Source: Elusimicrobiota bacterium
GTDB taxonomy: Bacteria > Elusimicrobiota > Elusimicrobia > UBA1565 > UBA9628
Reading direction: 5' to 3'
NCBI GenBank assembly: GCA_028865585.1
Contig: JAGWJU010000002.1
Coordinates: 1 to 36,085 of the forward strand
DNA: 36,085 bases
Shown: positions 6,188-32,939 of the stretch, in pieces
Position numbering within the stretch: the first letter of the stretch is position 1
Layout of the letters: every line of letters begins with the position of its first letter
Program-made: the position numbers and the translations under genes
Notes under the pieces: generated by a model
The model's input: the letters and a program-made list of their open reading frames with translations, nothing else
What the model was told of the DNA's origin: nothing
Database searches by the model: none

Positions 6188-6442
6188 TTACGGCCTCCCA
6201 AGCCGGGCGAAAATCATGCGGCTCTCCTCCATTCGCTTCCTCAGGATTTGCGCGATGGGACGGAGAACCCGGAAAATCTCGCGGTCGCGGATGGAATACA
6301 AAACGGCGGATTTGCGTTTGCGCGAAACCACGATGCCCGCGCGGCGCAAGATGGCGAGGTGTTTGGAAAGGCTCGACTGCTCGACTTGCAGGCGTTCCGC
6401 CATGCGGCCGACGGCCTCGAAATGTTTAGGCGCCTCGTACAA
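6188..6442 (-). CDS. ArsR/SmtB-family winged-helix regulator, N-terminally short (possible remnant)
   Basis: 'VGRMAERLQVEQSSLSKHLAILRRAGIVVSRKRKSAVLYSIRD' is the HTH plus beta-wing of ArsR/SmtB. TTG start. An in-frame stop 9 codons upstream caps the ORF, so the usual alpha1 helix ('L..LadptRl.IL') cannot be encoded. Overlaps the cusA 3' end by 17 nt. Confidence 0.55.
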   Translation of the reverse strand: MYEAPKHFEAVGRMAERLQVEQSSLSKHLAILRRAGIVVSRKRKSAVLYSIRDREIFRVLRPIAQILRKRMEESRMIFARLGRP

Positions 6443-9400
6443 TCGAGCCGCGCACCCTGCCTTCCTTCATTTCCCAACGCCATTTCCAAATCGTATAGAC
6501 GGCCGGGTAAATCAAAAGCTCCATGATGAACGAAGTGAAGATGCCGCCGACCATCGGCGCGGCGATGCGCTTCATGACATCGGCGCCGGCTTCGTAGGCG
6601 GGCGCCCACATGACGGGCAAAAGCCCCATGAAGAGGCAAAGCACCGTCATCATCTTTGGCCGCACGCGCTTGACCGCACCGTGCATCACGGCCTCCTCCA
6701 AATCGGCGAGCGTCCGCATTTTGCCCTTGTTTTTCCATTCCTCATAGGCCAAATCAAGATAGAGCAGCATCACCACGCCGGTTTCGGCGTCGACACCCGC
6801 CAAGGCGATGATGCCGACCCAGACCGCAACGGACATGTTGTAGCCCAACATATAGAGCAGCCAAACCGCCCCAACCAAGGAAAAGGGCACGGCCAGAAAC
6901 ACGATGCCGGTTTTTACCACGGAGCCGGTGTTGACGTAGAGCAGCACGAAAATAATGAATAGGGTCAACGGCAGGATCAGCATGATCCGTTTGCGGGCGC
7001 GCTGCATGTACTGGTACTGGCCGCTCCATTTAAGGTAATAGCCTGGCGGAATCGTCACCTCCTTGGCGATAAGAGCTTTGGCCTTTTCTACGTAGCCACC
7101 GACGTCTTGCCCTGGCATGAGGTCCACATAGACCCAGCCGGTGAGCATGGCATCTTCATCGGTGATGGACGGCGGCCCCATTACTAGCTTGATGTCGGCC
7201 AACTGCCCAATGGGCACTTGGGCGCCGGTGGGCGCCGCGACCAGCACGCGCCGCAGCAGTTCTGGATCCCGGCGCAGGTCCTGCGGATAGCGGATGTTGA
7301 CGGGGTAGCGCTCCCGGCCCTCCACCGTCGTTGTGACGTTCTCTCCGCCGATAGCTGTCTCGATGACGTCCTCCACGTCCTCAACCGTCAGCCCGTAGCG
7401 GGCCGCCTCTTCCCGCCGCACCTTGAAGTCAATGAAATATCCGCCCTCGGTGCGCTGGGCGAAGGCGCTGCGCGTACCTGGCTCCTTGCGTAGCACGCCC
7501 TCGATGTCCTCACCGATCTTCTGGATTTGAGAGAGGTCGGGCCCAAAAATCTTAATGCCGACAGGCGTGCGGATGCCCGTCGTGGTCATGTCCACGCGCG
7601 CTTTGATGGGCATGGTCCAGACATTCGATGTGCCGGGAAGCTGGAGCGCTTGGTCCATCATCGAAACGAGATCATCCCAACTCGGCCGTCTCTTTTCGGG
7701 CCAGAAAAATCCCAGAAACGGCTTGAGCCATTGGGGCGCCCAGGAACTATACCAGCACGCATGAAACGTTTCCGGCCAATCCTGCTGGGGCTTTAATTCA
7801 ACCGTGGTATCGACCATCTCCAGGGGAGCGTTATCCGTTGCGGTGCGGGCGCGGCCGACGGTGCCGAAGACCCTTTTGACCTCGGGAAAGCTCTTTAAAA
7901 TCTCGTCTTGATGCTGGAGCCAGACCTTCGCCGCCTCGATGGAAATTCCGGGCAAGGTCGTGGGCATGTAAAGGAGGTCACCCTCGTTCAGGTTGGGCAT
8001 GAACTCCGAGCCAAGGCGCAGATAAATCGGAATCGTGGCCACGATGAGCAGCGCGGCCAAAACGATCGCGGCGCGGCGACGGGCCAGCACAAAGCGCAAG
8101 GCCGGATCATAAACGCGAAACAGCGCGCGGCTGACGGGGTGCTCCTCCTCCGAATAGATTTTTCCAGCCCAGAAAAAATTAACGATGCGGCTAAGTATCC
8201 GGGATTTGAACTTGAGTTCCCGCGCAGGCTTCAAGAAAATCTGCATCAAGACCGGAACCAGAGTCACGGCCAAAAACGCCGCGAAGAACATAGAGAAGGT
8301 CTTCGTGTAGGCCAGGGGCTTGAAGAGCCGTCCTTCCTGCGCTTGGAGGGTGAAGATGGGCAGAAAGCTAACCGCGATGACCAAGAGCGAGAAGAAGAGC
8401 GGTCGGCCAACTTCCTTGGTAGCCTCCAGAATCACGTCTTGCAGGGGCTTGGCCCCTCCCGACTGCTCCGAAAGCTCCAAATGCTTTTGGGCGTTCTCGA
8501 CCATGATCACGGCGGCGTCGACCATGGCGCCGATGGCGATGGCGATGCCGCCCAAGGACATGATGTTGGCACCCAGATTCATGTAGGTCATGGGAATAAA
8601 AGCCATGAGCGCCGCGAGCGGGAGGGTCAGCACCGGGATCAACGCGCTGCGGAAATGCCACAAAAAAATGATGATGACGAGGCTGACGATAATCATTTCC
8701 TCGATAAGTTTGTCGCGCAAAGTGGCGATGGAGCGTTTGACCAGGCTTGAGCGATCGTAGACAGGCACGAGCTCGACGCCTGGCGGAAAGGCGCTTTTGA
8801 CCTCAGCGATTTTAGCCTTGACCGCGTTGATGACCTTCAGGGCGTTTTCCCCGTAACGCATCACCACGATGCCGCCCACGGTTTCCCCTTGGCCGTCAAG
8901 CTCGGCCACGCCCCTGCGCGGCGCGGGGCCGTAGCGCACGTAGCCTATATCCTTGATGAGAATAGGTGCGCCGTTCTTGTCCACGCCGACCGGGACGTTC
9001 TCCAGATCCGCCAGATTCTTGACGTAACCCCGCCCGCGCACCATATACTCGTGCTCGCTCATCTCCACCACGCCGCCGCCCACGTCGTTGTTGGAGCGGC
9101 GCACGGCCGCGATGACGTTTTTGAGCGGAATGCGGTAGGCCAAGAGCGCTTCCGGATCGATCACGATCTGGTATTGCTTGACGTAGCCGCCGATCGAGGC
9201 GACCTCCGCCACTCCGGGAACGCTCTCAAGCCAGTAACGCAGGGACCAATCCTGGAAGGCGCGCAAATCGGCCAAGCTGTGCCGCCCGGATTTGTCCACC
9301 AGCGCGTATTCGTAGACCCAGCCGGCTCCGGTCGCATCAGGCCCCAGGTATGGGTCGACGCCTCCGGGCAACTCGCCCTTGATTTTGGAGAGATACTCCA

Positions 9401-9731
9401 AGGTGCGCGAGCGTGCCCAATATAGATCCGTTCCATCCTGAAAAATGATGTAGACGAAGGACAGACCGAAGAAGGAGTATCCGCGCACGACCTTGACCTT
9501 GGGCGCGCCAAGCATGGCCGTGACGATGGGGTAGGTGATCTGGTCCTCGACCAAATTCGGCGAGCGGCCCGGCCACTCCGTGAAAACGATGGTCTGCACG
9601 TCCGAGAGATCGGGGATGGCGTCCAAGGGGATTTTTTTCAAGGCATAAATACCCCAGACAATGGCAAAAACCAAGCCCAAGAAAACGAAGAAGCGGTTCT
9701 TCGCGCACCAGTCGATAAGGCCGTTAATCAT
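6426..9731 (-). CDS. cusA: Heavy-metal efflux RND pump, CusA type (Cu(I)/Ag(I))
   Basis: 'MINGLIDWCAKNRFFVFLG...IPLDAIPDLSDVQTIVFTEWPGRSPNLVEDQITYP' is a classic CusA/CzcA N-terminus. ATG at 9731 overlaps the cusB stop by 8 nt; the track start at 9776 is probably an extension. The motifs 'LLYMPTT', 'PLEMVDTT' and 'VDMTTTG' match, from memory, the three-Met Cu(I) site of E. coli CusA. Confidence 0.93.
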   Translation of the reverse strand: MINGLIDWCAKNRFFVFLGLVFAIVWGIYALKKIPLDAIPDLSDVQTIVFTEWPGRSPNLVEDQITYPIVTAMLGAPKVKVVRGYSFFGLSFVYIIFQDGTDLYWARSRTLEYLSKIKGELPGGVDPYLGPDATGAGWVYEYALVDKSGRHSLADLRAFQDWSLRYWLESVPGVAEVASIGGYVKQYQIVIDPEALLAYRIPLKNVIAAVRRSNNDVGGGVVEMSEHEYMVRGRGYVKNLADLENVPVGVDKNGAPILIKDIGYVRYGPAPRRGVAELDGQGETVGGIVVMRYGENALKVINAVKAKIAEVKSAFPPGVELVPVYDRSSLVKRSIATLRDKLIEEMIIVSLVIIIFLWHFRSALIPVLTLPLAALMAFIPMTYMNLGANIMSLGGIAIAIGAMVDAAVIMVENAQKHLELSEQSGGAKPLQDVILEATKEVGRPLFFSLLVIAVSFLPIFTLQAQEGRLFKPLAYTKTFSMFFAAFLAVTLVPVLMQIFLKPARELKFKSRILSRIVNFFWAGKIYSEEEHPVSRALFRVYDPALRFVLARRRAAIVLAALLIVATIPIYLRLGSEFMPNLNEGDLLYMPTTLPGISIEAAKVWLQHQDEILKSFPEVKRVFGTVGRARTATDNAPLEMVDTTVELKPQQDWPETFHACWYSSWAPQWLKPFLGFFWPEKRRPSWDDLVSMMDQALQLPGTSNVWTMPIKARVDMTTTGIRTPVGIKIFGPDLSQIQKIGEDIEGVLRKEPGTRSAFAQRTEGGYFIDFKVRREEAARYGLTVEDVEDVIETAIGGENVTTTVEGRERYPVNIRYPQDLRRDPELLRRVLVAAPTGAQVPIGQLADIKLVMGPPSITDEDAMLTGWVYVDLMPGQDVGGYVEKAKALIAKEVTIPPGYYLKWSGQYQYMQRARKRIMLILPLTLFIIFVLLYVNTGSVVKTGIVFLAVPFSLVGAVWLLYMLGYNMSVAVWVGIIALAGVDAETGVVMLLYLDLAYEEWKNKGKMRTLADLEEAVMHGAVKRVRPKMMTVLCLFMGLLPVMWAPAYEAGADVMKRIAAPMVGGIFTSFIMELLIYPAVYTIWKWRWEMKEGRVRGSIVRGA

Positions 9732-10770
9732 GGCCGAATCCTTGCGCCGCGGCCCGGAAGTCGGATTCCGAATCAATCAGGAAATTGCCGCTGGTTACCA
9801 CGCGGTCGCCGGCTTTAAGGCCCTTCAAAATTTCGACCCAATGATCGGCATGGTTTCCGACCGTGACTTGACGCGGAGCCAAGTAACCGCGGCCCAAATC
9901 CACGAAGACGGTCTGGCGCAAGCCCGTATCGACCACGGCATCCCTCGGGACCGCAAGACGCACGCCCAGGCTGACCTGGATGTCGGCATCCAGATAAACG
10001 CCGGGACGCAGGACGCCGCCGGGATCTTTGATTTCAACGCGCACGCGGGCCGCGCGGGTTGCGGGGTTTAGGACCGGATCGATGGAAACGACCTTTCCCC
10101 GAAAAACCTGACCGGGTAGCGACGGGCTCATCGCCTCCACGATCTGTCCCATCTTGACCAGGGGCAGGTCTTGTTCGAAAACGTCGGCGTAGAGCCAGAG
10201 GGGGGAATTTTTACCGCGGGACAGCAGCAGGCCCGCATCTGGCTTGTCCGCACGGCCAAGCGCCGCGATCTGCAATGCGGAGAGCCCCAAGAGCTTCAAG
10301 CGCAGACGACTTGACGCCAAAAGAGCCTGTGCCCTGTGCCGGGACTCGGCGAATCGGCTTTTTTGCGCGGCGCGCGCAGATGCCAAGGCCGCGAGATAGT
10401 CCTCTTCGGCTTGATAGAGCTCCGGATCGTAGGCGATCCAGCCGACGGTTCTGATGTTTCTTACCAGAGGCCGCATTTGAGCCGTGCCGAGCCGCAGGCC
10501 AATTTCTTGCCGGCGGTAGGGGCTGACCTCGAAGGCGTCTTTTTCTGGAGCGGCGTCTTGATCCGCGTAGACCGGCACATAGTCCATTCCCATGGAGTCT
10601 TTCGCGGGCACGGGCGAGGTCATGTTCGGATTCATTGCACTCCGGTAATAGAGGATTTTTTTGGCAGAGGCTCCTCCGTCCGAACCGGACTTCGACCCGC
10701 CGCAGCCGGACAAGATTAGGACCGCGGCTAGGGCCGCCAGCACCGCCGGGACCGAAAGTTTTTTGCTCAT
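9724..10770 (-). CDS. cusB: RND periplasmic adaptor (membrane fusion protein), CusB-like lipoprotein
   Basis: Signal plus lipobox 'LILSGC'. Adaptor-like barrel/hairpin sequence. The start forms an ATGA overlap with the upstream outer-membrane factor stop. Confidence 0.85.
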   Translation of the reverse strand: MSKKLSVPAVLAALAAVLILSGCGGSKSGSDGGASAKKILYYRSAMNPNMTSPVPAKDSMGMDYVPVYADQDAAPEKDAFEVSPYRRQEIGLRLGTAQMRPLVRNIRTVGWIAYDPELYQAEEDYLAALASARAAQKSRFAESRHRAQALLASSRLRLKLLGLSALQIAALGRADKPDAGLLLSRGKNSPLWLYADVFEQDLPLVKMGQIVEAMSPSLPGQVFRGKVVSIDPVLNPATRAARVRVEIKDPGGVLRPGVYLDADIQVSLGVRLAVPRDAVVDTGLRQTVFVDLGRGYLAPRQVTVGNHADHWVEILKGLKAGDRVVTSGNFLIDSESDFRAAAQGFGHD

Positions 10771-12077
10771 TGCTTGCCTCCTTGCGCCGTAAGCGGCCCA
10801 CCCGAGACGCGCTCCAGGTCCGCGACGGCGATTTCAAAATCTACGCGATGGCGCTCCTGATCCAGCTCGAACGATAGAAGCGAGCGCTCCGAGTCCAAGA
10901 GGCTCAAAAAGCTGGCCCGGCCGGCTTCGTAGGCGTTTTGGGTCGAATCCAGCGCGGCCTGAGCCTGAGGCAGCACCGTATCCTCATAAAGTTTGAAGAG
11001 CCGCGCCGCCGTGTCGGCTTTCACGGACAAATTCTCGACTTGATACCGGGTTTCGTTGACCATGTCCTGCAGGCCCGATTCCGAGGCCGCCAAATTTTCC
11101 CGGGACTGCCTGAGCGCCGCATTCTCCTTGTTAAGCCATATGGGAAGGTTAAGGCCGAAGCTCAGGGCTTGGGCATCCTGACCGTCATAGGGCAGATTGG
11201 TAGTGCCTCCGCCGATTTCGCTGTACTGATAGCCCAACGTCAAATCCGGGAAATAGTCCCGAATGGCCAAGCGCCGCTCCGCGGCATTTTTGTTCTTGAG
11301 CGCACGCAGGGCCAGGATTTCCGGCCTCATGGCAAGGGCCTGCTCGCTCCAGGCCGTTTCATTCCAGCGGAAGTCCGGATTCTCGGGCCGCTCCAGACGA
11401 CCCAACGGCGCCTCCGGCGAGCGATCCAGAAGAGCATTTAATCGCGCTCGGGCGCTCTTTTGCTTCTCTTCGGCCGTCACTAAGTCGTTTTCAATTTTTG
11501 CGAGTTCCACCTGCGCTCGCAAGGCCTCGGATTCAGGCGCCCGCCCGACCGTATATTTCTCGGTGGCAGAACGGGAGAAGCGATTCATAACGCTTTGCTG
11601 TTCCTCTAGGATGGCGATGGCCTGATCCAGAAAGTAAATCCCGTAGTAGGCGCGCACGGTCCGATCCATAATTTCCAAGGATTTTGCGCGCAACGCTTGG
11701 CGCGAGACTTCTGCGGCCATGGAGGCCGCTTGGCCACGCAGCGCCCGTTTGCCCCAAAACGGGATATTCTGGGTGATGGTGATTTGATCTCCCATCGGGC
11801 CGGCCATGGTCTGCGGCGCCTTACGCATGCCTGTCAGCATATGGGAAACATTCAACGTCGGGTCATCGAAGGCCCGGGCCTCTTCCGGAACGTTTGCCGC
11901 CGCGGCCCACGCATGGCGCGCGGCTTGAATTTCCGGATTGTCTTTCTGGGCCAATTCCAGAACGGAAGCCAAGCTCATATCCCCGGTGGAGATTGCGACG
12001 ACGGAAGACGGCGCGGAAGCGGCCGGCTCCGCGGCACTTAGAACCGAGGCGAACAGCAACGCAAAGCATGCGACCAT
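10767..12077 (-). CDS. cusC: TolC-family outer-membrane efflux factor (CusC-like)
   Basis: ATG at 12077 preceded by GGAGG, giving signal 'MVACFALLFASVLSAAEP'. TTG at 12095 is the alternative start. Two-repeat coiled OMF-type sequence ('...RLNALLDRS...', '...LDSERSLLSFELD'). Confidence 0.85.
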   Translation of the reverse strand: MVACFALLFASVLSAAEPAASAPSSVVAISTGDMSLASVLELAQKDNPEIQAARHAWAAAANVPEEARAFDDPTLNVSHMLTGMRKAPQTMAGPMGDQITITQNIPFWGKRALRGQAASMAAEVSRQALRAKSLEIMDRTVRAYYGIYFLDQAIAILEEQQSVMNRFSRSATEKYTVGRAPESEALRAQVELAKIENDLVTAEEKQKSARARLNALLDRSPEAPLGRLERPENPDFRWNETAWSEQALAMRPEILALRALKNKNAAERRLAIRDYFPDLTLGYQYSEIGGGTTNLPYDGQDAQALSFGLNLPIWLNKENAALRQSRENLAASESGLQDMVNETRYQVENLSVKADTAARLFKLYEDTVLPQAQAALDSTQNAYEAGRASFLSLLDSERSLLSFELDQERHRVDFEIAVADLERVSGGPLTAQGGKQ

Positions 12078-12148
12078 GCGCCCTCCAGCAATCAATCAAC
12101 GCGTCTTATGGAAACGGAACGAATTCAGGCGTGCGTCCAGGACGGCTG

Positions 12149-12582: not shown

Positions 12583-12975
12583 TCAACCGTATCTGGCCAG
12601 GAGCGGTCCCAGGAGATAAGCGAAGAAAAATCCTACGGCATAAATGGCCGCCGCGCTCCACCACATCGTTTTGTTGAAGCGGCCGGCCGCCTCGCATCCT
12701 TTTCCGCCGGTCACGGCGCAGGCTAGCTTCCCCTGAGGACGGAATAGAAGGGCGCCGTTGAATACAAGGAGAAGCCCCGCGATCCCAAATATCCAGACCT
12801 TGTGTCTGGAGACGGAGACCAGCCAGGGAAAGGCCGAAAGAAGGCTTCCCACCGCGGCCCCGCCCGCGATCACGGAGAGGGTCACGGGCAGGGCGCAGCA
12901 GAGGAGAGTCCCGGCGGAAGTAAAAAGAGACAGGACGGAGAGGACCTTGCTCTCGGACTTTTTATCCTTTTCCAT
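12583..12975 (-). CDS. MerT/MerF-like small membrane protein with vicinal-Cys motif in TM1
   Basis: ATG at 12975 preceded by AAGGGA. 'GTLLCCALPVTLSVIAGG' resembles the MerT/MerF 'CC..P' first helix. A second Cys pair sits in 'CAVTGGKGC' before the last TM. Three predicted TMs. Confidence 0.6.
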   Translation of the reverse strand: MEKDKKSESKVLSVLSLFTSAGTLLCCALPVTLSVIAGGAAVGSLLSAFPWLVSVSRHKVWIFGIAGLLLVFNGALLFRPQGKLACAVTGGKGCEAAGRFNKTMWWSAAAIYAVGFFFAYLLGPLLARYG

Positions 12976-13336
12976 GGTCGTTTCCCTTCGCATTGCCTTG
13001 TCCGACCGCAGAGGCCTTCGGCGCTTGCGTGACCTTTGCTTCTTTAGGGGTGAACCCGTGTTCGCGGACGACGCGGCGGATTTCTTTCAAGGTCACCTCG
13101 TTTCCCGGCGCCAGATCGAGCGTGGCCGTGCCGGCATTCAGGCTCACGACGACCTTGGCCACGCCCTTGATTTTCTCGAGGCCCTTCGTCATGCCGTAGG
13201 CGCATGGCGCGCAGTCCATGCCGTATATTTTCATCACGACCTTGCTCATTTCCGCACGGGCCGACGCTGCCTGCCACGCGGCCAGGGCCAGAAAGAGCCC
13301 GGCCAGGACCGCTGATTTCTTGCTTTTTTTCGCCAT
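12962..13336 (-). CDS. Periplasmic heavy-metal-associated (HMA) protein, MerP/CopZ-like
   Basis: Sec signal 'AVLAGLFLALAAWQAASARA'. Complete ferredoxin-like HMA domain with 'GMDCAPCA'. GGAGGA SD upstream. Confidence 0.85.
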   Translation of the reverse strand: MAKKSKKSAVLAGLFLALAAWQAASARAEMSKVVMKIYGMDCAPCAYGMTKGLEKIKGVAKVVVSLNAGTATLDLAPGNEVTLKEIRRVVREHGFTPKEAKVTQAPKASAVGQGNAKGNDHGKG

Positions 13337-24722: not shown

Positions 24723-25139
24723 ATGGGCCAACGCTTTACCATCGGGAAAATCGCCAATCTGGCGGGGACCAGCATCCAGACCATCCGTTATTACGAGAGA
24801 TGCCGGCTCCTGCCGCCGAACGGCCGTACGGAGTCCGGCTATCGGCTCTACACGGAGGAAGCGGTCCAAAAACTGCGCTTCATCAAGAACGCTCAGAGTC
24901 TCGGTTTCTCCCTGGCTGAAATCGCGCGCCTGCTGCGACTCCGGGTCGGCTCGCCGGCGCAGTGCGGCAAGACCATGGCGCGCGTGAAGGCAAGACTTAA
25001 GGTTGTCCAGGGCAAGATTTCCGGGCTGCGGGCCATCGAAAGAACTTTGCGGCTTTTGATCCGGACCTGCGCGGCCCGGGGGACGAGCTCCTCGTGTCCG
25101 ATTTTGGAAAACTTCGAAATAAAAGACAGGAGGATATAA
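24723..25139 (+). CDS. merR: Mercury-responsive MerR regulator (all three Hg-ligand Cys present)
   Basis: HTH 'TIGKIANLAGTSIQTIRYYERCRLL'. C81 ('AQCGKT'), C116 and C125 ('RTCAARGTSSSCPILENF', C-x8-C) correspond to MerR C82/C117/C126. Confidence 0.88.
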   Translation: MGQRFTIGKIANLAGTSIQTIRYYERCRLLPPNGRTESGYRLYTEEAVQKLRFIKNAQSLGFSLAEIARLLRLRVGSPAQCGKTMARVKARLKVVQGKISGLRAIERTLRLLIRTCAARGTSSSCPILENFEIKDRRI

Positions 25140-25771
25140 TGGAAGATAAAAACAACGGACGTTTTGTCGGACTCGCCGCGCTGCTCACGGCGGGCCTGGC
25201 TTCGGTCTGCTGCATCGGCCCGCTTCTTGCCGTCGCCTTGGGCTTTGGAAGCTTGGGATTCGCCGCGGGGCTTATCCGATATCGGCCGCTGTTCCTAGCG
25301 CTGACCGCCGTGATACTGGCTTTCGGCTTTTATCAGGCTTATCGCAAACGTTCGGTTGAATGCGCGGACGGAAGCTGCGAGATGCGCTCGGGAAGCCGCG
25401 CGATGAAAACGGGCCTGTGGGTCCTAACCGCCGCCGTCCTGGCCTTGGCGACTTTTCCCAAGTGGTCGGCCTGCCTGCTGGGGCAATGCAAACCTAAAGC
25501 CGCCGCCGGGGCTGCGGCGGCTTCCGTTCCCGCCGGAGCCCAGGCCATAAACCTTGGAATTTCCGGCATGGACTGCGCCGCCTGCACGGTCGAGATTAAA
25601 AAGGACGTGGAAAAATTGCCCGGCGTCTATTCCGCGAACGTTGATTTTTACGCCGGGACGGCGCTGGTTGAAACCAACGGGAAAGTCAACCCTCAAGACG
25701 TGGTGAGGGCGGTCGCGGCCGCGGGATATCAGGCCAAAGTCATTCAGTCAAAAAATGGAGGAGCGCAATGA
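25139..25771 (+). CDS. merT: MerT-MerP fusion (mercuric ion transporter with C-terminal HMA domain)
   Basis: The ATG overlaps the merR stop (TAATG), 5 nt after AGGAGGA. 'LASVCCIGPLLAV' and 'YRPLFLALTAV...CADGSC' are MerT-like. The C-terminal complete HMA domain has 'GMDCAACT'. Confidence 0.85.
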   Translation: MEDKNNGRFVGLAALLTAGLASVCCIGPLLAVALGFGSLGFAAGLIRYRPLFLALTAVILAFGFYQAYRKRSVECADGSCEMRSGSRAMKTGLWVLTAAVLALATFPKWSACLLGQCKPKAAAGAAAASVPAGAQAINLGISGMDCAACTVEIKKDVEKLPGVYSANVDFYAGTALVETNGKVNPQDVVRAVAAAGYQAKVIQSKNGGAQ

Positions 25772-27219
25772 AGCAAAATAACGGGGTGGAAGGACGCGAG
25801 TTCTGGGACGGCGCGACGAAATTCGACTTGGCTGTGATTGGAGGCGGCTCTGGTGCTTTCGCCGCCGCCATCAAGGGCTCGGAGATGGGGGCCAAGGTCG
25901 CCATTATTGAGGAAGGCGTCATTGGGGGCACGTGCTTAAACCGCGGCTGCGTGCCCACCAAGCACCTCATTCGCGCGGCCGAGGTTTATCACTTGGCGCA
26001 GTCCAATCCTTTCGCCGGATTTTCGCTCAAGCGCTCCAAGCTGGACTTCGCCAAGCTCATCGAAAAGAAAGACGCGCTCCTCGATTGGGCCAGGAACGCC
26101 AAGTACTGGGACATCTTGAGGTATCACAAGAACATCAGCTTCATCAGCCGCAGGGCCAAACTGACCGCTCCCGGGCGCATCGACGCCGGAGGAACGGAAA
26201 TCCAGGCTCAAAAAATCATCATCGCGACCGGATCCTCGGCCTTTATCCCGCCCATCGAGGGGCTGGATAAGGTTCCCTATCTGACCAGCACGGAGGCCTT
26301 GAATCTCAAGGAGCTTCCCGGCTCCATGATGGTGCTGGGGGCCAACGCCGTGGGCCTGGAGCTGGCCCAAATGTTTTCCCGCTTCGGGGTCAAGACGGCC
26401 ATCCACGAGATCATGGGCCGCGTGGCTCCTCTGGAGGAGCCCGAGATATCGGACGCCTTGGGGAAATACATTAAGGAAGACGGCATCGAGGTCTGCACTT
26501 GCTCGAAAGTTGTCAAAGCCCGCAAGGAAGGGACGCAAATCGTCATCAGCTCCGAAATGCCCGGCGGGAAAATCAGGGAATTTATGGCCGAGGCGCTTTT
26601 GGTGGCCACGGGCAGGCGTCCCAACACGCGGAATATGGGGCTTGAAGGCCTCGGCGTGGCCATGGACGCCCGCGGCTACATCAAGACCGACGAGATGATG
26701 AAAACATCGGTTGCCGGCGTTTTCGCGGCGGGAGACTGCGTTGGGCCTTACCAGTTCGTCTATACGGCCGCTTATCAGGGAGCGGTCGCGGCCCAGAACG
26801 CCCTGGAAGACTGTTGCGAGCGTAAAATCAATTACGAACAGGTCCCCTACGCCATTTTCACCGATCCGGAAGTCGCTTCCGTGGGATTGAAGGAAGAGCA
26901 GGCCAGGAAGCGCGGCCTCGCTGTTCGGACCAGCATTCTGGATTTCCACTGGGTTCCCCGGGCCGAGGCGATGCTGAACGAGCGGGGCCTCATCAAGATC
27001 GTGGCCGAGGAAAAAAGCCTCAAGCTCCTGGGCGTGCACATCGTGGCGCCCCAGGCCGGAGAGCTTATTCACGAGGCCGCCATGGCCTTGAAATTCGGCG
27101 CGACCGCGGCGGATCTAATCGACGCGCTCCATGTCTATCCGACGCTCTCCGAGGCCTTGAAGATTTGCGCGCAGGGATTCTTCAAGGACGCGACCAAGCT
27201 CTCCTGCTGCGCGGAATAA
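25768..27219 (+). CDS. merA: Mercuric reductase, core form without N-terminal HMA (NmerA) domain
   Basis: ATGA overlap with the previous gene. 'VIGGGSGAFAAA'. Redox-active 'GGTCLNRGCVPTK'. C-terminal vicinal pair 'KLSCCAE', which is diagnostic of MerA. Confidence 0.93.
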   Translation: MKQNNGVEGREFWDGATKFDLAVIGGGSGAFAAAIKGSEMGAKVAIIEEGVIGGTCLNRGCVPTKHLIRAAEVYHLAQSNPFAGFSLKRSKLDFAKLIEKKDALLDWARNAKYWDILRYHKNISFISRRAKLTAPGRIDAGGTEIQAQKIIIATGSSAFIPPIEGLDKVPYLTSTEALNLKELPGSMMVLGANAVGLELAQMFSRFGVKTAIHEIMGRVAPLEEPEISDALGKYIKEDGIEVCTCSKVVKARKEGTQIVISSEMPGGKIREFMAEALLVATGRRPNTRNMGLEGLGVAMDARGYIKTDEMMKTSVAGVFAAGDCVGPYQFVYTAAYQGAVAAQNALEDCCERKINYEQVPYAIFTDPEVASVGLKEEQARKRGLAVRTSILDFHWVPRAEAMLNERGLIKIVAEEKSLKLLGVHIVAPQAGELIHEAAMALKFGATAADLIDALHVYPTLSEALKICAQGFFKDATKLSCCAE

Positions 27220-27243
27220 AAACGGAAAGGAGGAAAAACGAAG

Positions 27244-27432
27244 ATGAAGACAGTTCGCGTTTATGAAGGCTCGTTGTGGTGCAACGGGTGCCGCCACTGC
27301 CCGGTGGTCGACTACGCGCCTGAGGAAGGCCAAGTCGTCATCCATGATCCGGCGAAGCCCAAGAATGGCAAGATGATGATGAGCGTCGAGGAGTACAACG
27401 CCCTCATCGCGCACGCCAAGCCGATCGCATAA
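27244..27432 (+). CDS. 62-aa Cys-rich protein (CxxCxxC), unknown family
   Basis: AAGGAGG SD about 9 nt upstream. 'SLWCNGCRHCPVVDY...VVIHDPAKPKNGKMMMSVEEYNALI'. Lies 24 nt after merA. Confidence 0.6.
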   Translation: MKTVRVYEGSLWCNGCRHCPVVDYAPEEGQVVIHDPAKPKNGKMMMSVEEYNALIAHAKPIA

Positions 27433-27439
27433 TCGGACT

Positions 27440-27471
27440 GGAACGGGCCGGTCGAGAGGCCGGCCTGTTCC
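27440..27471 (+). terminator. Strong hairpin after the 62-aa gene (attenuator or terminator-like; no U-tract)
   Basis: GGAACGGGCCGG-tcgagagg-CCGGCCTGTTCC, a 12-bp stem with one G-U pair. It is followed by 'aaagctt', not a T run. Confidence 0.35.
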
Positions 27472-27508
27472 AAAGCTTAGGGCAGTCATTTGTTCCAAGG
27501 AGGTCGAC

Positions 27509-27574
27509 ATGGGATTTATGGGCTGGGCGGCGTTCCTATGCTTGGCGATGTTGTTGAGCGGCTGTTGCTGTTGA
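27509..27574 (+). CDS. Micro-ORF 1 (21 aa): MGFMGWAAFLCLAMLLSGCCC
   Basis: Below the ORF-track length cutoff. AAGGAGG (27497-27503) lies 5 nt before the ATG. Hydrophobic peptide with lipobox-like L-S-G-C, followed only by C-C and then stop. Confidence 0.35.
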   Translation: MGFMGWAAFLCLAMLLSGCCC

Positions 27575-27590
27575 AGGACAGGAGCGCAAG

Positions 27591-27677
27591 ATGAGGCAAG
27601 GGGACTTGTGGACCATCATCGCCGCCATCGCGGCCGTTTCCTTGTGCTGTCTTGGGCATCTATTCATGCGGCGTTAA
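27591..27677 (+). CDS. Micro-ORF 2 (28 aa): MRQGDLWTIIAAIAAVSLCCLGHLFMRR
   Basis: GGAG lies 6 nt before the ATG, 16 nt after the micro-ORF 1 stop. One TM helix flanked by charged ends, with an intramembrane 'CC..H'. Confidence 0.35.
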   Translation: MRQGDLWTIIAAIAAVSLCCLGHLFMRR

Positions 27678-27748
27678 GGAATGCATGACCGGCACCGCCG
27701 CGGACGCAAACCAAATAATCTTAAAAGCGCATCGGAAGATGACGCCAC

Positions 27749-27775
27749 TGTAACATTCCCGGCTTTGGCGCGACT
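27749..27775 (+). promoter_or_regulatory. ECF-type promoter motif, copy A (TGTAAC-N16-CGACT)
   Basis: TGTAACattcccggctttggcgCGACTtaataat, ending 19 nt before the ATG at 27794. Confidence 0.5.
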
Positions 27776-27793
27776 TAATAATGGAAGGATCGC

Positions 27794-28159
27794 ATGAGAA
27801 CGCTGGTAAAACCTAAAGTCCGCAGAAAGATCGCGCTTGACGGGGAGCAGGACGGGCCGGCGCAGGCGGCCACGGCCTCGGCGGCGACATTGTTGGATTA
27901 TCCCCAGGAAGGAGAAATCATCACGTCTTCCTGCTACACGTTCCGCATCGCCCCGCGCGTAGCGGCTCTAGGCGTGGATATTTCCATCGACCAGGGGCCG
28001 TGGATGCCCTGCCGGGAATCGGTCGGCTACTGGTGGTATGATTGGTCGGGCTATGCGGCGGGCCGGCACCAAGCATCGGTCAGGACGCGGACTGCGGACG
28101 GGCGGCTTGTTCCAAGCGATATCCGCCAATTTGAAACGCGCTCTGAACCCACGGCTTGA
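27794..28159 (+). CDS. Hypothetical protein, probably beta-sandwich
   Basis: GGAAGGA SD. 'YTFRIAPRVAALGVDISIDQGPWMPCRESVGYWWYDWSGYAAGRHQASVRTRTADGR' looks like an Ig/E-set-type module. No signal peptide. Confidence 0.55.
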   Translation: MRTLVKPKVRRKIALDGEQDGPAQAATASAATLLDYPQEGEIITSSCYTFRIAPRVAALGVDISIDQGPWMPCRESVGYWWYDWSGYAAGRHQASVRTRTADGRLVPSDIRQFETRSEPTA

Positions 28160-28195: not shown

Positions 28196-28714
28196 ATGAC
28201 TCAAGCTGCGCTGCAGGACAATCCGGAAGCCGTTCTGGACGGCATCAAAAAGAAGCTCGGCTTCGTGCCCAACATCTATAAGGAAATGATCAAGTCCCCG
28301 GCCGCGTTCGAAGTCTATGTCGGGGGAACGCAGGCCCTGGAGCGGCGAGGGATTTTGAAACCCGTTGAGCGGCAGGCCGCCATGCTGGCCGTTTCGGCCT
28401 CGAACAAGTGCGATTACTGCGCGAGCGCGCACAGCCTGCTCGCCAAGGCCTCGGGCATGGCCGAAGAAGACACCGCAGCCGTAAGATCCGGCGGCGAACC
28501 GCGCGACGCAAGGCTCGGGGCCCTGGTCCGCGCCGTCCGGCTGATTCTGGACAAGCGGGGATTCCTGGATGAGGAGAACCTGCGGCGTCTTGAAAAGGAT
28601 GGAATCGCTCGGCCGCAGCTCTACGAGCTTATCGCGATTGTCGGCCTTAAGACGATCTCCAACTACCTCAACCATATCAATCATACGGAGATCGATCCGC
28701 AGTTCAAGGGTTAG
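28196..28714 (+). CDS. Carboxymuconolactone decarboxylase / AhpD-like family protein (CxxC)
   Basis: 'AVSASNKCDYCASAHS' is the AhpD-core CxxC motif. All-helical, ~170 aa. Confidence 0.85.
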   Translation: MTQAALQDNPEAVLDGIKKKLGFVPNIYKEMIKSPAAFEVYVGGTQALERRGILKPVERQAAMLAVSASNKCDYCASAHSLLAKASGMAEEDTAAVRSGGEPRDARLGALVRAVRLILDKRGFLDEENLRRLEKDGIARPQLYELIAIVGLKTISNYLNHINHTEIDPQFKG

Positions 28715-28854: not shown

Positions 28855-29163
28855 ATGAGCAAGACGATGAACAAAGCCCTCTTGGGGGCGGCTATGGCCG
28901 GAATCATGGGGGCGGCTATGATGGCGGCTCCCGCTTCGGCTAAACAAAGAAAAGCGGCGAAGAACGTCAAGTGCTACGGCGTGAACAAATGCGCCGGGCA
29001 CGGCAGCTGCGGCGGCAAGGGTCACCAGTGCGCGGGCAAGAATTCCTGCAAGGGCCAAGGCTGGCTCCCCATGCCCAAGAAATCCTGCGAGAACATCGAG
29101 GGCGGTTCATTGACGCCTGTCAAACCGGCGACCCAGCCGATGAACAGCAAGGGTGGCCAGTAA
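28855..29163 (+). CDS. bufA: DUF2282 / BufA-type bufferin precursor peptide with Sec signal (6 Cys, 2 His in core)
   Basis: GGAG lies 6 nt before the ATG. Signal 'ALLGAAMAGIMGAAMMAAPASA'. Core 'KCYGVNKCAGHGSCGGKGHQCAGKNSCKGQGWLPMPKKSCENIEGGSLTP' follows the 'KCYGV...C...CAG...W..P...C...GGSL' DUF2282 pattern. Confidence 0.85.
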   Translation: MSKTMNKALLGAAMAGIMGAAMMAAPASAKQRKAAKNVKCYGVNKCAGHGSCGGKGHQCAGKNSCKGQGWLPMPKKSCENIEGGSLTPVKPATQPMNSKGGQ

Positions 29164-29189
29164 GGCTTAAGCAAATAGGAACGAATCGT

Positions 29190-30083
29190 GTGGCGGCCTG
29201 GAAAACCTCCCATCATCAGCCGGACGGCTTAGTCGTCCGCGGCGTCGGCATCGGCCTACGTTCCGTCCATTACGATCACATCCTCTCCCGCCGTCCCGCG
29301 GTCCCTTGGTTCGAGGCTATTTCCGAGAACTATATGGGACTGCGGGACGGCCAAGGGGGAAGGCCCTTGGAAATTTTGCGGCTTGTCCGAGAGCGTTATC
29401 CCGTGGCCCTTCACGGAGTTTCCATGAATATCGGCTCCGCAGACCCCCTGGACCGGGATTATTTGAAAAAACTCAAGCGCCTGGCCGACCTCGTCAAACC
29501 CGCGCACATCTCGGATCATCTATGCTGGACGGGGACGCGAGGGCGCAATCTGCACGATCTCCTGCCTCTGCCTTATACGCGGGAAGCCTTGAATCTCATC
29601 GTGCCCCGGGTTCGGGAAATCCAGGAGACGCTGGGCAGGCGCTTTCTTCTGGAAAACGTTTCCAGTTACGCCGCGTACCGGCATTCCGAGATGCCGGAAT
29701 GGGAGTTCTTGGCCGAAATCGCGGAGCGCTCGGGCTGCGGCATTCTCTTGGACGTCAACAACGTCCACGTCAGCGCGACGAACCACGGATACGACCCACT
29801 CGAATACATCGATGGCGTTCCGTCCGGGCTGGTAGTGCAGATGCACCTGGCCGGCTATTCCGAGTCCGGCGCTCTCCTCATCGACACGCACGATCACCCG
29901 GTGTCCGATCCGGTCTGGGACTTGTACGCCCGAGCCCTGCGCCGTTTTGGGGACGTTCCCACGCTCATCGAATGGGACGATCGGATTCCCTCTTTTCGCG
30001 TCCTTGAGGAACAGGCCGCGCGCGCCGAAAAAATCCGCCGGGGGGTGTCGCGTGAGCGCCTTGCGCCCGCCCTGTCTTCCTGA
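29190..30083 (+). CDS. bufB: DUF692 multinuclear non-heme iron oxidase (MNIO; BufB/MbnB-like)
   Basis: GTG at 29190 is the only plausible start after the precursor stop. 'GVGIGLRSVHYDHIL...WFEAISENYM...ALHGVSMNIGS...ISDHLCW...LLENVSSY...LLDVNNVHVSA...MHLAG...LIDTHDHPV...TLIEWD'. Confidence 0.9.
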   Translation: MAAWKTSHHQPDGLVVRGVGIGLRSVHYDHILSRRPAVPWFEAISENYMGLRDGQGGRPLEILRLVRERYPVALHGVSMNIGSADPLDRDYLKKLKRLADLVKPAHISDHLCWTGTRGRNLHDLLPLPYTREALNLIVPRVREIQETLGRRFLLENVSSYAAYRHSEMPEWEFLAEIAERSGCGILLDVNNVHVSATNHGYDPLEYIDGVPSGLVVQMHLAGYSESGALLIDTHDHPVSDPVWDLYARALRRFGDVPTLIEWDDRIPSFRVLEEQAARAEKIRRGVSRERLAPALSS

Positions 30084-30888
30084 ACTGCAAAGCTGGCTCC
30101 AGGACGTCCTGAGCGATCCGGACGGGGTGGACGCGGCCGCAGCCCGCGGCGCGGCGAACGCCCAAGTCCTGTCGTGGATTCTAGACGGAGCCGGCGCGGA
30201 CGTGCGAACCCGGCTTTCGGTCTATTCCGACGCCTACTTCCTGCGCCTGCTCGATTCTCTCGGCCACGATTTTCCGGCGCTCAAACGAGCCTTGGGCGGC
30301 GACGGCTTCCGAGGCTTGATCGCGGACTATCTCAAGACAAACCCCTCCACGTTTAAGAGCGTTTCCATGGTCGGCGGGAGTCTTTTCACTTTCATTCGAT
30401 GGCATCCCTTAAGCCGAAAATTCGGGTTCCTGCCGGATTTGGCGCGTTTGGAATGGGCCGTGCTCACTTGTCTCCATCGGGATCGCCCTGAGACGGCCGA
30501 TCTTTTCCGATCCGGGGCGCTGTCGGAAGCGGATCTGCCGTCCGCCCAATTATCGCTGGGCCCGGCGGCACGGCTTTTGGAAACGGACTGGGCCGTGGAC
30601 CGGCTCTGGCGCCGCGCGGAGCTTCCCTCGGGCCGCGGCCCGAGGCGTTTGCGAAAAAAAGAGCCTCGCAAGCTGCTGATATTTCGGGATGAGTTATGGG
30701 TCCGCGTGGAATCCTTAGATCCGGCGCAATGGTCGGCTCTAAAGAAGATTGAGCGGGGGGCTGCGCTCGAATCGGTCTGCCGGCATTGGGAAAATTCCTC
30801 CGGCTTTCGGGTCGCTCCCGCGGCCGCGCGAAAATGGTTTAAGAATTGGATTCAATCCGGAATCATCGCCATCAGGAGGCCCTCATGA
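30052..30888 (+). CDS. bufC: DUF2063 protein (BufC-type MNIO partner)
   Basis: GTG at 30052, overlapping bufB by 32 nt. 'VYSDAYFLRLLDSLGHDFPALKRALGGDGFRGLIADYLKTNPS' matches the DUF2063 N-terminal domain pattern. Confidence 0.8.
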   Translation: MSALRPPCLPELQSWLQDVLSDPDGVDAAAARGAANAQVLSWILDGAGADVRTRLSVYSDAYFLRLLDSLGHDFPALKRALGGDGFRGLIADYLKTNPSTFKSVSMVGGSLFTFIRWHPLSRKFGFLPDLARLEWAVLTCLHRDRPETADLFRSGALSEADLPSAQLSLGPAARLLETDWAVDRLWRRAELPSGRGPRRLRKKEPRKLLIFRDELWVRVESLDPAQWSALKKIERGAALESVCRHWENSSGFRVAPAAARKWFKNWIQSGIIAIRRPS

Positions 30889-32402
30889 ACGAAACCATCC
30901 GTGTTTTGCCGGATGACGAGCATAACCGCGCCTTGGCGTCAAACGCTCATCCGCAGGGTTGGATCAATCCCAATCCTGCCGCGAAATACCATTTGGTCGT
31001 TGTCGGCGGAGGCACGGCCGGCCTGGTCACGGCGGCGGGCGCCGCCGGCCTGGGCGCCAAGGTCGCGTTGGTGGAGAAGCACCTCCTGGGCGGGGACTGT
31101 TTGAACGTCGGCTGCGTGCCGTCGAAGGCTCTCATCCGAGCGTCCCGGGCCGCAGCGGATGTCCGGGGCGCGGCTGAGTTTGGAATTTCGGTCCCGCTGG
31201 GCTGGACGGCGGATTTTCCCGGGATCATGGAGCGGCTGCGCCGTTTGCGCGCGCAGTTAAGTTCAAACGATTCGGCCAAGCGCTTTAAGGACTTGGGCGT
31301 GGACATTTTCCTGGGCGAAGGCCGGTTCGTGGGCCCGTCATCCCTGGAAGTCGCGGGCTCACGGCTCAATTTCTCCAAGGCCGTCATCGCCACGGGCGCG
31401 CGCGCGGCCAGGCTGCCCATCCCAGGACTATGGGAATCGGGCGCCCTGACCAACGAAACCGTCTTCTCGCTGACCGAACTGCCCAAGCGCCTCGTCGTCA
31501 TCGGCGCGGGGCCCATCGGCTGCGAACTCTCGCAGGCTTTCGCCCGCTTCGGCGCCCGCGTCTCCATTCTGGAAGTCTCGAGCCAAATTCTCGGGCGCGA
31601 GGACGAGGACGCGGCCCGCATCGTGCAAGCCGCGCTCAAGAAAGACGGGGTTGAAATCATGACGTCCTGCAAAATCTCCGGCGTGGAGGCGCGAGGCGGG
31701 GAGAAAATCGTGCGGTTAGAAAGCGAAGGTAGAAACATGGAACTGACCGCGGACGCGATTCTGGTCGGCGTGGGCCGCGCTCCCAACGTCGAAGGCCTGG
31801 AATTGGAGGCGGCGGGCGTGGAATACGACAAGCGGACGGGCGTCAAGGTGGACGACCGACTGCGCACGGCGAACTCCCGCATCTTCGCTGCGGGGGACGT
31901 TTGCTCGCCTTACAAATTCACCCATGCGGCCGACGCCATGGCGCGGGTCGCGATTCAGAACGCATTGTTCGCGGGCAGGAAAAAGGCGAGTTCGCTCGTC
32001 ATCCCCTGGTGCACCTACACAGATCCGGAAGTCGCCCACGTCGGACTTTACGAAAAGGAGGCGCACGCTCTCGGCATCAAGACGAATACCTTCATACAAG
32101 CCCTTAAGGATGTAGACCGAGCCGTTCTGGACGGGCAAGGAGAAGGCTTTGTTAAAATCCATCTTCGGACCGGCACCGATGAAATCCTTGGCGCGACCAT
32201 CGTGGCCGCCCATGCCGGCGAGATGATTGGAGAACTAGCCCTGGCCATGACCGCTAAAATCGGGCTCAAAACAATAGGGGCGACTATCCATCCATATCCC
32301 ACTCAAGCCGAGGCCGTTAAGAAAACGGCGGACGCCTACAACCGAAGCCGCTTGACGCCTGCGGCCAAGCGACTCTTGGCGTTTTGGCTGGGGCGGCCGT
32401 AG
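30885..32402 (+). CDS. Class-I pyridine-nucleotide-disulfide oxidoreductase (MerA/Lpd-like flavoprotein lacking the MerA C-terminal Cys pair)
   Basis: AGGAGG lies 5 nt before the ATG. ATGA overlap with the bufC stop. 'VVVGGGTAGL', 'GGDCLNVGCVPSK', 'HPYPTQAEA'. The C-terminus 'TPAAKRLLAFWLGRP' has no CC. Confidence 0.9.
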   Translation: MNETIRVLPDDEHNRALASNAHPQGWINPNPAAKYHLVVVGGGTAGLVTAAGAAGLGAKVALVEKHLLGGDCLNVGCVPSKALIRASRAAADVRGAAEFGISVPLGWTADFPGIMERLRRLRAQLSSNDSAKRFKDLGVDIFLGEGRFVGPSSLEVAGSRLNFSKAVIATGARAARLPIPGLWESGALTNETVFSLTELPKRLVVIGAGPIGCELSQAFARFGARVSILEVSSQILGREDEDAARIVQAALKKDGVEIMTSCKISGVEARGGEKIVRLESEGRNMELTADAILVGVGRAPNVEGLELEAAGVEYDKRTGVKVDDRLRTANSRIFAAGDVCSPYKFTHAADAMARVAIQNALFAGRKKASSLVIPWCTYTDPEVAHVGLYEKEAHALGIKTNTFIQALKDVDRAVLDGQGEGFVKIHLRTGTDEILGATIVAAHAGEMIGELALAMTAKIGLKTIGATIHPYPTQAEAVKKTADAYNRSRLTPAAKRLLAFWLGRP

Positions 32403-32411: not shown

Positions 32412-32939
32412 ATGCCAAATCCCGTCACCCGCCTTTTCTGGAAGGCCGCCATTCGTCTGCGCTGGCTTCTGCCCTCGAAGAAAGCCTCCGGAGTCGAGAT
32501 AGGACGGCGTATTCCGGATTTTGCTTTATCCAATGCGGAAGGACGCAGCTTCAGACTCTCTTCAGTTTTCCCTGATAAGGCCGCGGTGCTGTGGCTGACC
32601 AATCTCTGCTCAAGCTGCCAGGAGCGCATTCCGCTTCTAGAGCGGGTCTATTCGGAGAAACGCAAAAACTTGGAGATATTCGCCATTTCGACGCTAGGGG
32701 ACGATCGGCGGACGCCCGAAATAATCGCAGCGGAGCATCACCCGAGCTTCCCGCTGCTTTTGGACCCCAAAGACTGGGTGAAGAATACATTGGGATTGGA
32801 GCACCCATCAGGAGCCTGCCCTATGTATAACCTCCTAATGCTGGATCGCTCCGGACGCGTTCGCTTGCGCCACCACCTTTCGGCCATCCCGGACGAGCGG
32901 TTTTTGAAAGAGTTGGATTCCCTACTGGAGGCCGCATGA
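32412..32939 (+). CDS. Thioredoxin-fold redoxin (TlpA/AhpC-TSA-like) with CSSC active site
   Basis: 'IPDFALSNAEGRSFRLSSV...AVLWLTNLCSSCQERIPLLE'. Lies 9 nt after the reductase stop. Confidence 0.75.
   Translation: MPNPVTRLFWKAAIRLRWLLPSKKASGVEIGRRIPDFALSNAEGRSFRLSSVFPDKAAVLWLTNLCSSCQERIPLLERVYSEKRKNLEIFAISTLGDDRRTPEIIAAEHHPSFPLLLDPKDWVKNTLGLEHPSGACPMYNLLMLDRSGRVRLRHHLSAIPDERFLKELDSLLEAA

Follow-up and report, generated by a model that had tools for sequence, protein, structure and literature searches.

Just downstream of a mercury-resistance (mer) operon, the 36,085-nucleotide stretch of an Elusimicrobiota bacterium analyzed here (contig JAGWJU010000002.1, positions 1 to 36,085; hereafter the window) carries two tandem micro open reading frames (ORFs), pep1 and pep2, each of which would encode a hydrophobic peptide with vicinal cysteines. 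We favor, with somewhat better than even confidence, the reading that pep2 is a genuine micro-gene derived from helix 1 of MerT/MerF and specifying a membrane binder of Hg(II) or another soft metal, and that pep1 is a lineage-specific addition to it. This reading is carried by the conservation of pep2 in other mer-associated loci, by its pattern of codon change and by its likeness to the first helix of MerT. The first-pass annotation had placed both micro-ORFs directly 3′ of the mer operon, and their coordinates and ribosome-binding sites are exactly as it described them. The argument turns on the following elements:

27497-27587, + strand: 91-nucleotide block, present in the window but not in its closest relative, locus L002 (from alignment)
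27509-27574, + strand: pep1, 21 amino acids, MGFMGWAAFLCLAMLLSGCCC (ATG at 27509, TGA at 27572-27574; from the ORF and its Shine-Dalgarno (SD) sequence)
27591-27677, + strand: pep2, 28 amino acids, MRQGDLWTIIAAIAAVSLCCLGHLFMRR (ATG at 27591, TAA at 27675-27677; from the ORF, its homologues and codon analysis)
27695-27721, + strand: dead 3′ remnant of a gene that we call p38 (stop at 27716-27718; from local alignment to the p38 of L002)

An ORF of this size is no evidence by itself, since 123 ORFs of at least 20 amino acids overlap the 10-kb stretch that includes them. Relatives of the locus were found with a 62-residue Cys-rich ORF, which lies upstream of the micro-ORFs, as the anchor. Two contigs from metagenome-assembled genomes (MAGs), L002 (Elusimicrobia; 62-residue protein 89% identical) and L003 (77% identical), carry an intact 28-codon pep2 ORF, MEQSGPWAIIAAIAAVSLCCLGHLFMRR and MGQEKIWTILAAIALIALCCFGHLFTRR, respectively, 3′ of the same merR-merT-merA-orf62 operon. 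A metagenome scan added one contig, L012, which encodes an HMA-domain protein and MerC and holds three copies: L012a (MKDSIWILAALGLLALCCLGHLVLR), L012b (MELILALVVCGLCCLGHLFLGRRR), which begins 4 nucleotides 3′ of L012a and whose stop overlaps the ATG of a patatin gene (ATGA), and L012c (MKDWVWMLAAAGTLALCCLGHLFR), 2 kb away. The family thus comprises six copies in four loci, all from uncultured bacteria and all with a mercury context. Met1, L-C-C and G-H-L are invariant in all six members (core LCC[LF]GHL), and every member, 24 to 28 residues long, stops 1 to 5 residues past the motif with an Arg before the stop.

The codons of this core differ at the third position in nearly every copy. Across the 20 ungapped codon columns of the six copies, 12, 8 and 18 columns vary at codon positions 1, 2 and 3, respectively, and the ratio of nonsynonymous to synonymous change (pN/pS) is 0.29-0.63 for every divergent pair, with 0.5-0.9 synonymous differences per site. 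In the comparison of the window with L003, the pep2 ORF aligns and its flanks do not, the pN/pS of the pep2 frame, 0.40, is below that of each of the five other frames (0.68-3.1), and four of those five contain stops. Frame, start, stop and synonymous excess are therefore those of a coding gene, in what is a small sample; on these codon comparisons, the substitution pattern is that of a protein-coding gene under purifying selection, and the homologues in other genomes together with this pattern argue that pep2 is a real conserved gene. The conservation check that the first-pass annotation had called for comes out positive for pep2, in that the reading frame, the Cys pair, the His and the place of the stop are all kept in the relatives, most of the changes being synonymous. 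The pep2 loci are also organized like genes: GGAG at 27581-27584 precedes the window ORF with a 6-nucleotide spacer, and the stops overlap the next SD sequence or start (TAAGGAGGAATTCATG in L002; the patatin ATGA and the 4-nucleotide tandem in L012). A terminator-like GCCGCCATCGCGGC inside pep2 was considered as a conserved element and rejected, as it is not kept in L003.

No known family accounts for these peptides. Pfam-A and NCBIfam, scanned with both peptides, p38 and neighboring ORFs, gave no family for pep1, pep2, the 62-residue ORF or a 121-residue ORF that follows the micro-ORFs (hmmscan against Pfam-A was run at E≤10 for pep2 and its L003 homologue). A profile search of the PDB with pep2 found no MerF or MerT, returning a signal peptide at E 5 only; a concatenate of three pep2 sequences had no match in a set of 5.8 billion protein clusters; and the 39-residue window stretch that includes pep2, searched exhaustively with HMMER against 1.84 billion representative proteins, gave one spurious match (P0006), an unrelated repeat protein without the Cys motif that matched the non-native N-terminal padding. 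In plasmids, tblastn with the other members of the pep2 family gave no match. That no mer peptide so small is known, as had been remarked at the outset, agrees with the blank results from Pfam, NCBIfam, the PDB and the two large protein sets. Judged by these searches, pep2 is a rare unannotated micro-protein family linked to mer loci, so far in few uncultured lineages. Separately, three Halieaceae MAGs (L017 at 2434, L022 at 6636 on the − strand, L037 at 3605) share an ORF end, ...LASA(G/R)ERDALCC[LF]GHLF*, that turned up in the motif scan; it does not have the Met-Trp-helix layout and probably has no relation to pep2.

The closest likeness of pep2 is to MerT. In the same loci, MerT starts with MENKKWSLVGAFLAAIAASACCLGPLILAALG..., and hhalign places residues 1-25 of the pep2 alignment on residues 1-30 of these MerT N-termini (Prob 67%, E 5e-5), the alignment taking in CC-x-G-x-L; in a composition-preserving control, the observed score of 20.3 lay above all 300 column shuffles (8.9 ± 2.4). 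In L002 and L003, the second-best tblastn match of pep2 is the locus's own MerT helix 1. Against 7.3 Gb of plasmid sequence, tblastn with pep2 gave a single match, not significant alone at E 7, on pNOCA01 of Nocardioides sp. JS614, 93 nucleotides past the annotated merA and inside a 108-residue two-helix ORF (L132 3906-4231; NC_008697.1, about 280907-281232, minus strand of the record) that is absent from the PLSDB gene table. The ATG of this ORF overlaps the merA stop (ATGA), and its helix 1, AWTAIGVAMVVTLCCLGPLL, with CCLGPLL, agrees with pep2 (LWTIIAAIAAVSLCCLGHLF) in the spacing from Trp to CC and is identical to it at about 10 of 19 residues. The ORF follows merA directly, and it differs from pep2 in being full length, in having two helices and a long basic extension at the N-terminus, and in carrying Pro instead of His. 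It matches Pfam MerT weakly (E 0.86) and probably encodes a MerT/MerF-like transporter that was left unlisted or unannotated. The resemblance that the first-pass annotation had seen between pep2 and the Cys pair in helix 1 of MerT/MerF is upheld by the hhalign score, its shuffles and the plasmid match, and in its residues pep2 looks like a free-standing MerT helix 1 with His in place of Pro.

In two of the relatives pep2 has a partner. In L002 (4356-4472, + strand) and L003 (4863-4979, + strand), the pep2 stop lies inside TAAGGAGGAATTCATG, which starts a 38-residue ORF, p38, that is translationally coupled to pep2 in both loci. The two p38 sequences are 74% identical, with the consensus MRKGI[IV]IA[VI]VAA.VGAGIW..S[RK]C.G.CPMP.SQ.QAK, that is, one helix followed by C-x3-C-P-M-P. 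By hhalign, p38 falls weakly on MerT 52-90 (helix 2 and the cytoplasmic Cys pair), collinear with pep2 on helix 1; it also resembles, at 48% over 29 residues, the first half of a DUF6132-like gene on the other strand, and this minus-strand peptide of L002 has a weak DUF6132 match. The window keeps the last ~27 nucleotides of p38 (~9 codons and the stop), in a frame without a start codon that a TGA blocks upstream; against the 3′ end of the L002 p38 this remnant has a local score of 25, which none of 500 shuffles reached (best 23). A longer remnant in a first MAFFT alignment was rejected, since local alignment and shuffles back the last 27 nucleotides only. In the window, p38 is destroyed by an internal deletion, while in L012 solo and tandem copies of pep2 occur without it. 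The two pieces, pep2 and p38, may be an ancestral split mini-MerT/MerF.

The other micro-ORF, pep1, has a different standing. Its SD sequence, AAGGAGG(T) at 27497-27504, is a perfect anti-SD complement (AAGGAGGT) with 5 nucleotides from AAGGAGG to ATG, and of the 11 AGGAGG sites in the window with an ATG 5-10 nucleotides 3′, all 10 others open ORFs of at least 62 residues. Because of this perfect SD sequence, the one feature that sets pep1 apart from a chance ORF, pep1 is probably translated. Its stop runs directly into the SD region of pep2, and the 91-nucleotide block holds the pep1 SD sequence, the whole of pep1 and the pep2 SD sequence; L002 passes from ...TTTGTCCC straight to the GAAGATG of pep2, without the block. 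Two independent assemblies of this lineage end at the block junction, within a few bases of the block start: L001, whose sequence is that of the window and which stops at window position about 27494, and L057. A minor variant contig in run X1 ends at 27509. Because assemblies end there, the junction appears to be heterogeneous among strains, which suggests strain-level presence or absence of the block. One Logan DNA contig from an independent run spans pep1 and pep2 intact, at a depth too low for population statistics.

No pep1 homologue came from an exact-DNA search of the species genomes or from the related loci, and plasmids gave signal-peptide-like chance matches only, so that no frame kept in homologues marks pep1 as a gene under purifying selection. 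The conservation check proposed for both peptides thus fails for pep1, which is not a conserved gene, its closest relative lacking the ORF through the 91-nucleotide indel. The layout of pep1 mirrors that of pep2, with four or five residues between Met and Trp, then a hydrophobic stretch, and with Ser17 and Cys19-Cys20 in matching places, and pep1 is possibly a diverged duplicate of the pep2 family. We treat it as a lineage-specific micro-ORF on a 91-nucleotide indel, unproven as a gene. UGA read-through or selenocysteine insertion after pep1 was also considered. It was rejected because reading on past the stop would run over pep2 in a different frame and because no match resembling a selenocysteine insertion sequence lies beside the stop.

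The two micro-ORFs stand at the end of a series of features on the + strand, in the order merR, merT-HMA, merA, orf62, hairpin, pep1, pep2, and are followed by a further ORF and a gene:

24723-25139, + strand: merR (Pfam MerR_1, MerR-DNA-bind, MerR)
25139-25771, + strand: merT fused to a C-terminal HMA (MerP-like) domain (Pfam MerT and HMA; helix 1 SVCCIGPLL)
25768-27219, + strand: merA-type mercuric reductase, 483 amino acids (Pfam Pyr_redox_2 and Pyr_redox_dim)
27244-27432, + strand: 62-residue Cys-rich ORF (WCNGCRHCP), no Pfam or NCBIfam family
27439-27472, + strand: 15-bp GC-rich hairpin (minimum free energy -37.1 kcal/mol, z -4.4; no U-tract)
27794-28159, + strand: 121-residue ORF directly 3′ of the micro-ORFs, no Pfam or NCBIfam family
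28196-28714: CMD/AhpD-family gene, after the 121-residue ORF

The merT-HMA start at 25139 follows AGGAGG by 5 nucleotides, and MerA, which lacks an N-terminal HMA domain, ends in ...LSCCAE, with a Cys pair. This mer operon has an unusual layout, with merR co-directional with the structural genes, the MerT-HMA fusion and a MerA without the N-terminal HMA domain. The hairpin separates the 62-residue ORF from the micro-ORFs. L002 keeps it (4197-4232), one G-U having changed to G-C, and in L003 the same place (about 4209-4241) is taken by a hairpin of another sequence. The element may be a terminator, possibly partial, or a transcript-stabilizing stem, and may mark where the core mer transcript ends. 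An Rfam scan of 27200-28000 at E≤10 returned noise only, and a known RNA in this region was rejected on that ground. No exact copy of the 121-residue ORF occurs in the gene-position index.

The 62-residue ORF belongs to a family of 62-64-residue Cys-rich proteins with W-C-x-G-C-x-H-C-P and then a conserved EEYNALIAHAKPI tail (window, L002-L004, L047-L057), and it has just five relatives in the 5.8-billion-cluster protein set. It comes after merA in four lineages, and relatives elsewhere adjoin NosD/ABC/multicopper-oxidase genes (L053) or SCO1/SenC (L056); these mer and Cu-type gene neighbors suggest a small soft-metal-handling protein. The window as a whole is a metal-resistance island, with a CusA-like resistance-nodulation-division (RND) pump, a membrane-fusion protein, an outer-membrane factor, an HMA protein and a DUF2282/MbnB/DUF2063 cluster, and its sequence is also present in mine-drainage and soil metagenomes. 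Elsewhere in the island, the HMA-domain protein (12962-13336, − strand) adjoins a 136-residue membrane ORF, both lying within 12583-13336 (− strand) and neighboring the CusA/CusB/outer-membrane-protein-like efflux genes at 6426-12095. A vicinal Cys pair lies in a helix of the 136-residue ORF (...SAGTLLCCALPVTLSV...), which belongs to no Pfam family and may be another uncharacterized CC-type metal carrier.

Several findings weigh against reading pep2 as a functional Hg(II)-binding micro-gene and pep1 as an addition to it. The pep2 family is tiny, and the selection statistics rest on its six short sequences from four contigs; degenerate DNA scans of 185,579 species genomes for A-L-C-C-[LF]-G-H-L-[FV] and C-C-L-G-H-L-F gave 34 and 74 matches, which is chance level, the L003 contig being the only genuine one. 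The pep2 DNA of the window and L002 is nearly identical, with nine differences that are all N-terminal and a pN/pS of about 1, which makes this pair uninformative by itself, and because of this near identity the intactness of pep2 in the window could simply reflect recency. The similarity to MerT is short: neither pep2 alone nor the concatenate of pep2 and p38 matches any of the Pfam models MerT, MerF and MerE, in contrast to the window's true MerT (E 1.6e-14). The alignment of p38 with MerT is weak (P 0.014; 6 of 200 shuffles reach its score), p38 itself is decayed in the window, and the pep2 module there may be on its way out. As to expression, a strong hairpin stands between the operon and the micro-ORFs, no promoter-like site was found 3′ of it on the + strand, the pep2 SD sequence of L002 is poor, and the locus was not found in the RNA sequencing runs searched. 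For pep1, no collection searched holds a homologue.

The same findings could be gathered into another account, in which pep2 is the dead 5′ fragment of a merT- or merF-like gene that once lay 3′ of merA, pep1 is a chance ORF and nothing is made or used. The likeness of pep2 to a MerT-type helix 1 would then be a trace of descent from a gene such as that of Nocardioides, which has the full two-helix version at the same post-merA position, and the decay of this region in the window, where p38 is a stub, the want of synonymous excess between the window and L002 and the absence of pep1 from this closest relative would all fit. We nevertheless regard this account as unlikely, for the six copies in four divergent loci end alike, 1 to 5 residues past the motif and with the Arg tail, a form on which independent truncations would not converge. 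All of them have His for Pro, their core is invariant while synonymous sites are near saturation (pN/pS 0.3-0.6), and L012 keeps three solo copies, one of them ATGA-coupled to the next gene.

Alternatively, the micro-ORFs might be leader or upstream ORFs whose translation itself tunes the downstream genes, the peptides being functionless. The overlap of their stops with the SD sequence or start of the next cistron fits such a role, as do a small hairpin that can pair with the AAGG of the pep1 SD sequence and the supply of the pep2 SD sequence by the same 91-nucleotide block that holds pep1. The motif is kept, however, though the downstream gene varies (p38; a second copy and then patatin; nothing for L012c; a dead stub in the window), and a leader needs no invariant CC-x-G-H in a helix like MerT helix 1, so that we give this explanation a low probability.

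For pep1 alone, the first-pass annotation had raised the idea of a lipoprotein signal peptide, from which Lgt and signal peptidase II, cutting L-S-G-|-C, would release a lipidated, metal-chelating Cys-Cys-Cys tripeptide. The lipobox stands, as L16-S17-G18-C19 in MGFMGWAAFLCLAMLLSGCCC; the same L-S-G-C box occurs in a real lipoprotein of the window (MSKKLSVPAVLAALAAVLILSGCGG, SD at 10782, minus strand), the SD sequence of pep1 is perfect, and its only look-alikes in databases are signal-peptide-like N-termini. The tripeptide finds no such support. The n-region, MGFMG, has no Lys or Arg, as the first-pass annotation had itself cautioned, only two residues follow Cys19, no homologue exists in the collections searched and the closest relative lacks the ORF. 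We know of no precedent for a mature lipoprotein of two or three residues. The layout of pep1 (M-x4-W, helix, vicinal Cys 19-20) is moreover that of pep2, a peptide that the Leu at lipobox position -1 rules out as a lipoprotein. We consider the lipoprotein explanation very improbable.

We give hardly any credence to the last explanation, that pep1 and/or pep2 are precursors of ribosomally synthesized and post-translationally modified peptides (RiPPs) for the MbnB/DUF692-DUF2063 enzymes 1.2-3 kb downstream, since, although both are small, rich in Cys and encoded on the same strand directly 5′ of a DUF2282-MbnB/TglH/ChrH-DUF2063 cluster, that cluster has its own DUF2282 precursor at 28855-29163, two unrelated genes (the 121-residue ORF and the CMD-family gene) lie between, no MbnB-family gene was found among the flanking ORFs scanned in L002, L003 and L012, and the peptides are almost wholly hydrophobic helices with no leader/core layout, no Pfam match and no DUF2282-type signature. 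MbnB/DUF692-family enzymes act on Cys of precursor peptides. The RiPP-type cluster (28855-30888, + strand) consists of the DUF2282 Cys-rich, secreted, precursor-like gene, an MbnB/TglH/ChrH-family enzyme at about 29100-30083 (E 1.9e-105) and a DUF2063 protein at 29947-30888, followed by a second pyridine-nucleotide disulfide oxidoreductase (30846-32402) and an AhpC/redoxin gene (32412-32939); we take it to be the gene set described for copper-binding "bufferin"-type peptides.

Returning to pep2 as a MerT-derived micro-gene, we propose that its product crosses the membrane once and consists of a short polar N-terminus, a Trp, a ~19-residue hydrophobic helix bearing L-C-C-[LF]-G-H-L and a C-terminal Arg anchor, and that it derives from the N-terminus and helix 1 of MerT/MerF-type Hg(II) importers. 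Because of the C-terminal Arg and the neutral or acidic N-terminus, the positive-inside rule predicts an N-out/C-in topology, which would place the Cys-Cys...His cluster in the cytoplasmic leaflet. The peptide would be expressed by read-through of the hairpin, since no promoter-like site follows it on the + strand, and would bind Hg(II) or another soft metal at the membrane; for both peptides, we infer an Hg(II) role from motif and genomic context. A lone helix cannot make a pore, and pep2 might act as a small oligomer or as an accessory helix docking on MerT-HMA. In either case its thiol pair and imidazole could be a stopping point for Hg(II) on the path from the membrane carrier to MerA, which in this operon has no metal-binding domain at its N-terminus and would receive metal passed on by pep2. 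A bolder version, in which pep2 is a working part of mercury resistance, either as the smallest known membrane carrier or buffer of Hg(II) (as an oligomer) or as half of a split mini-MerT/MerF with p38, and in which pep1 was newly recruited in this lineage to replace the lost second thiol module, has in our view a less than even chance of being right.

To our knowledge, the accepted membrane carriers of Hg(II) (MerT, MerC, MerF, MerE and MerG) are at least about 78 residues long, with no fewer than two helices. If the proposal is right, a single-helix vicinal-thiol peptide of 24-28 residues would define the minimal unit that holds or passes Hg(II) in a membrane, and pep2 is small enough to be synthesized for nuclear magnetic resonance and extended X-ray absorption fine structure studies and for bioremediation designs. 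The pair of pep2 and p38 would be a natural split-transporter experiment. It would also be a micro-protein missed by every annotation pipeline and by a 15-billion-protein catalogue. In practice, the intergenic tails of metal-resistance operons in uncultured acid-mine organisms merit micro-ORF-aware annotation.

Set beside known systems, pep2 resembles in its format the bacterial small membrane proteins of fewer than 50 residues, such as KdpF, CydX and AcrZ, which consist of a single helix and are often accessory subunits of transporters encoded nearby; like pep2, these are single-helix peptides under annotation cutoffs. We know of none that carries a vicinal Cys-Cys...His motif or has a link to mer. 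In its motif pep2 is closer to the mercury proteins. MerE (78 residues) is likewise a small gene distal in mer operons. What pep2 shares with it in sequence is the combination of two Cys with a nearby His, and mutagenesis has shown that Hg(II) uptake by MerE depends critically on both the Cys pair of helix 1 and the His beside it (PMC5715351). The MerE motif is C-P-C-H rather than C-C-x-G-H, MerE has two helices, and pep2 does not match its model.

MerT (PF02411) shares with pep2 the mer location, a short polar N-terminus with Trp or basic residues and a helix with [AS]-x-C-C-[LI]-G-x-L. Vicinal cysteines favor Hg(II), and the CC of helix 1 is an essential Hg(II) ligand in MerT and, as mutagenesis has shown, is needed for transport by MerT and MerF (PMC5500634). 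This pair stands in MerT within CC-[LI]-G-P-L, a context that pep2 retains with an invariant His for Pro in six of six copies. MerT has about 116 residues and three helices, whereas pep2 has 24-28 residues, one helix and no second (cytoplasmic) Cys pair, and pep2 ends in Arg right past the motif, which predicts a membrane orientation opposite to that of MerT. MerF, at 81 residues, with two helices and two vicinal Cys pairs in one polypeptide, is the smallest established Hg(II) transporter and thus a minimal CC-based membrane carrier; its vicinal pairs reportedly face the cytoplasm, and MerF by itself suffices for transport (PMC5500634). By itself, pep2 is a third of the size of MerF, has one helix and matches neither the MerF model nor the solved MerF chains in the PDB, and the second piece is dead in the window. 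Taken together, pep2 and p38 (66 residues, two helices, CC and C-x3-C), in a two-piece arrangement that we infer from L002 and L003, would share the overall plan of MerF.

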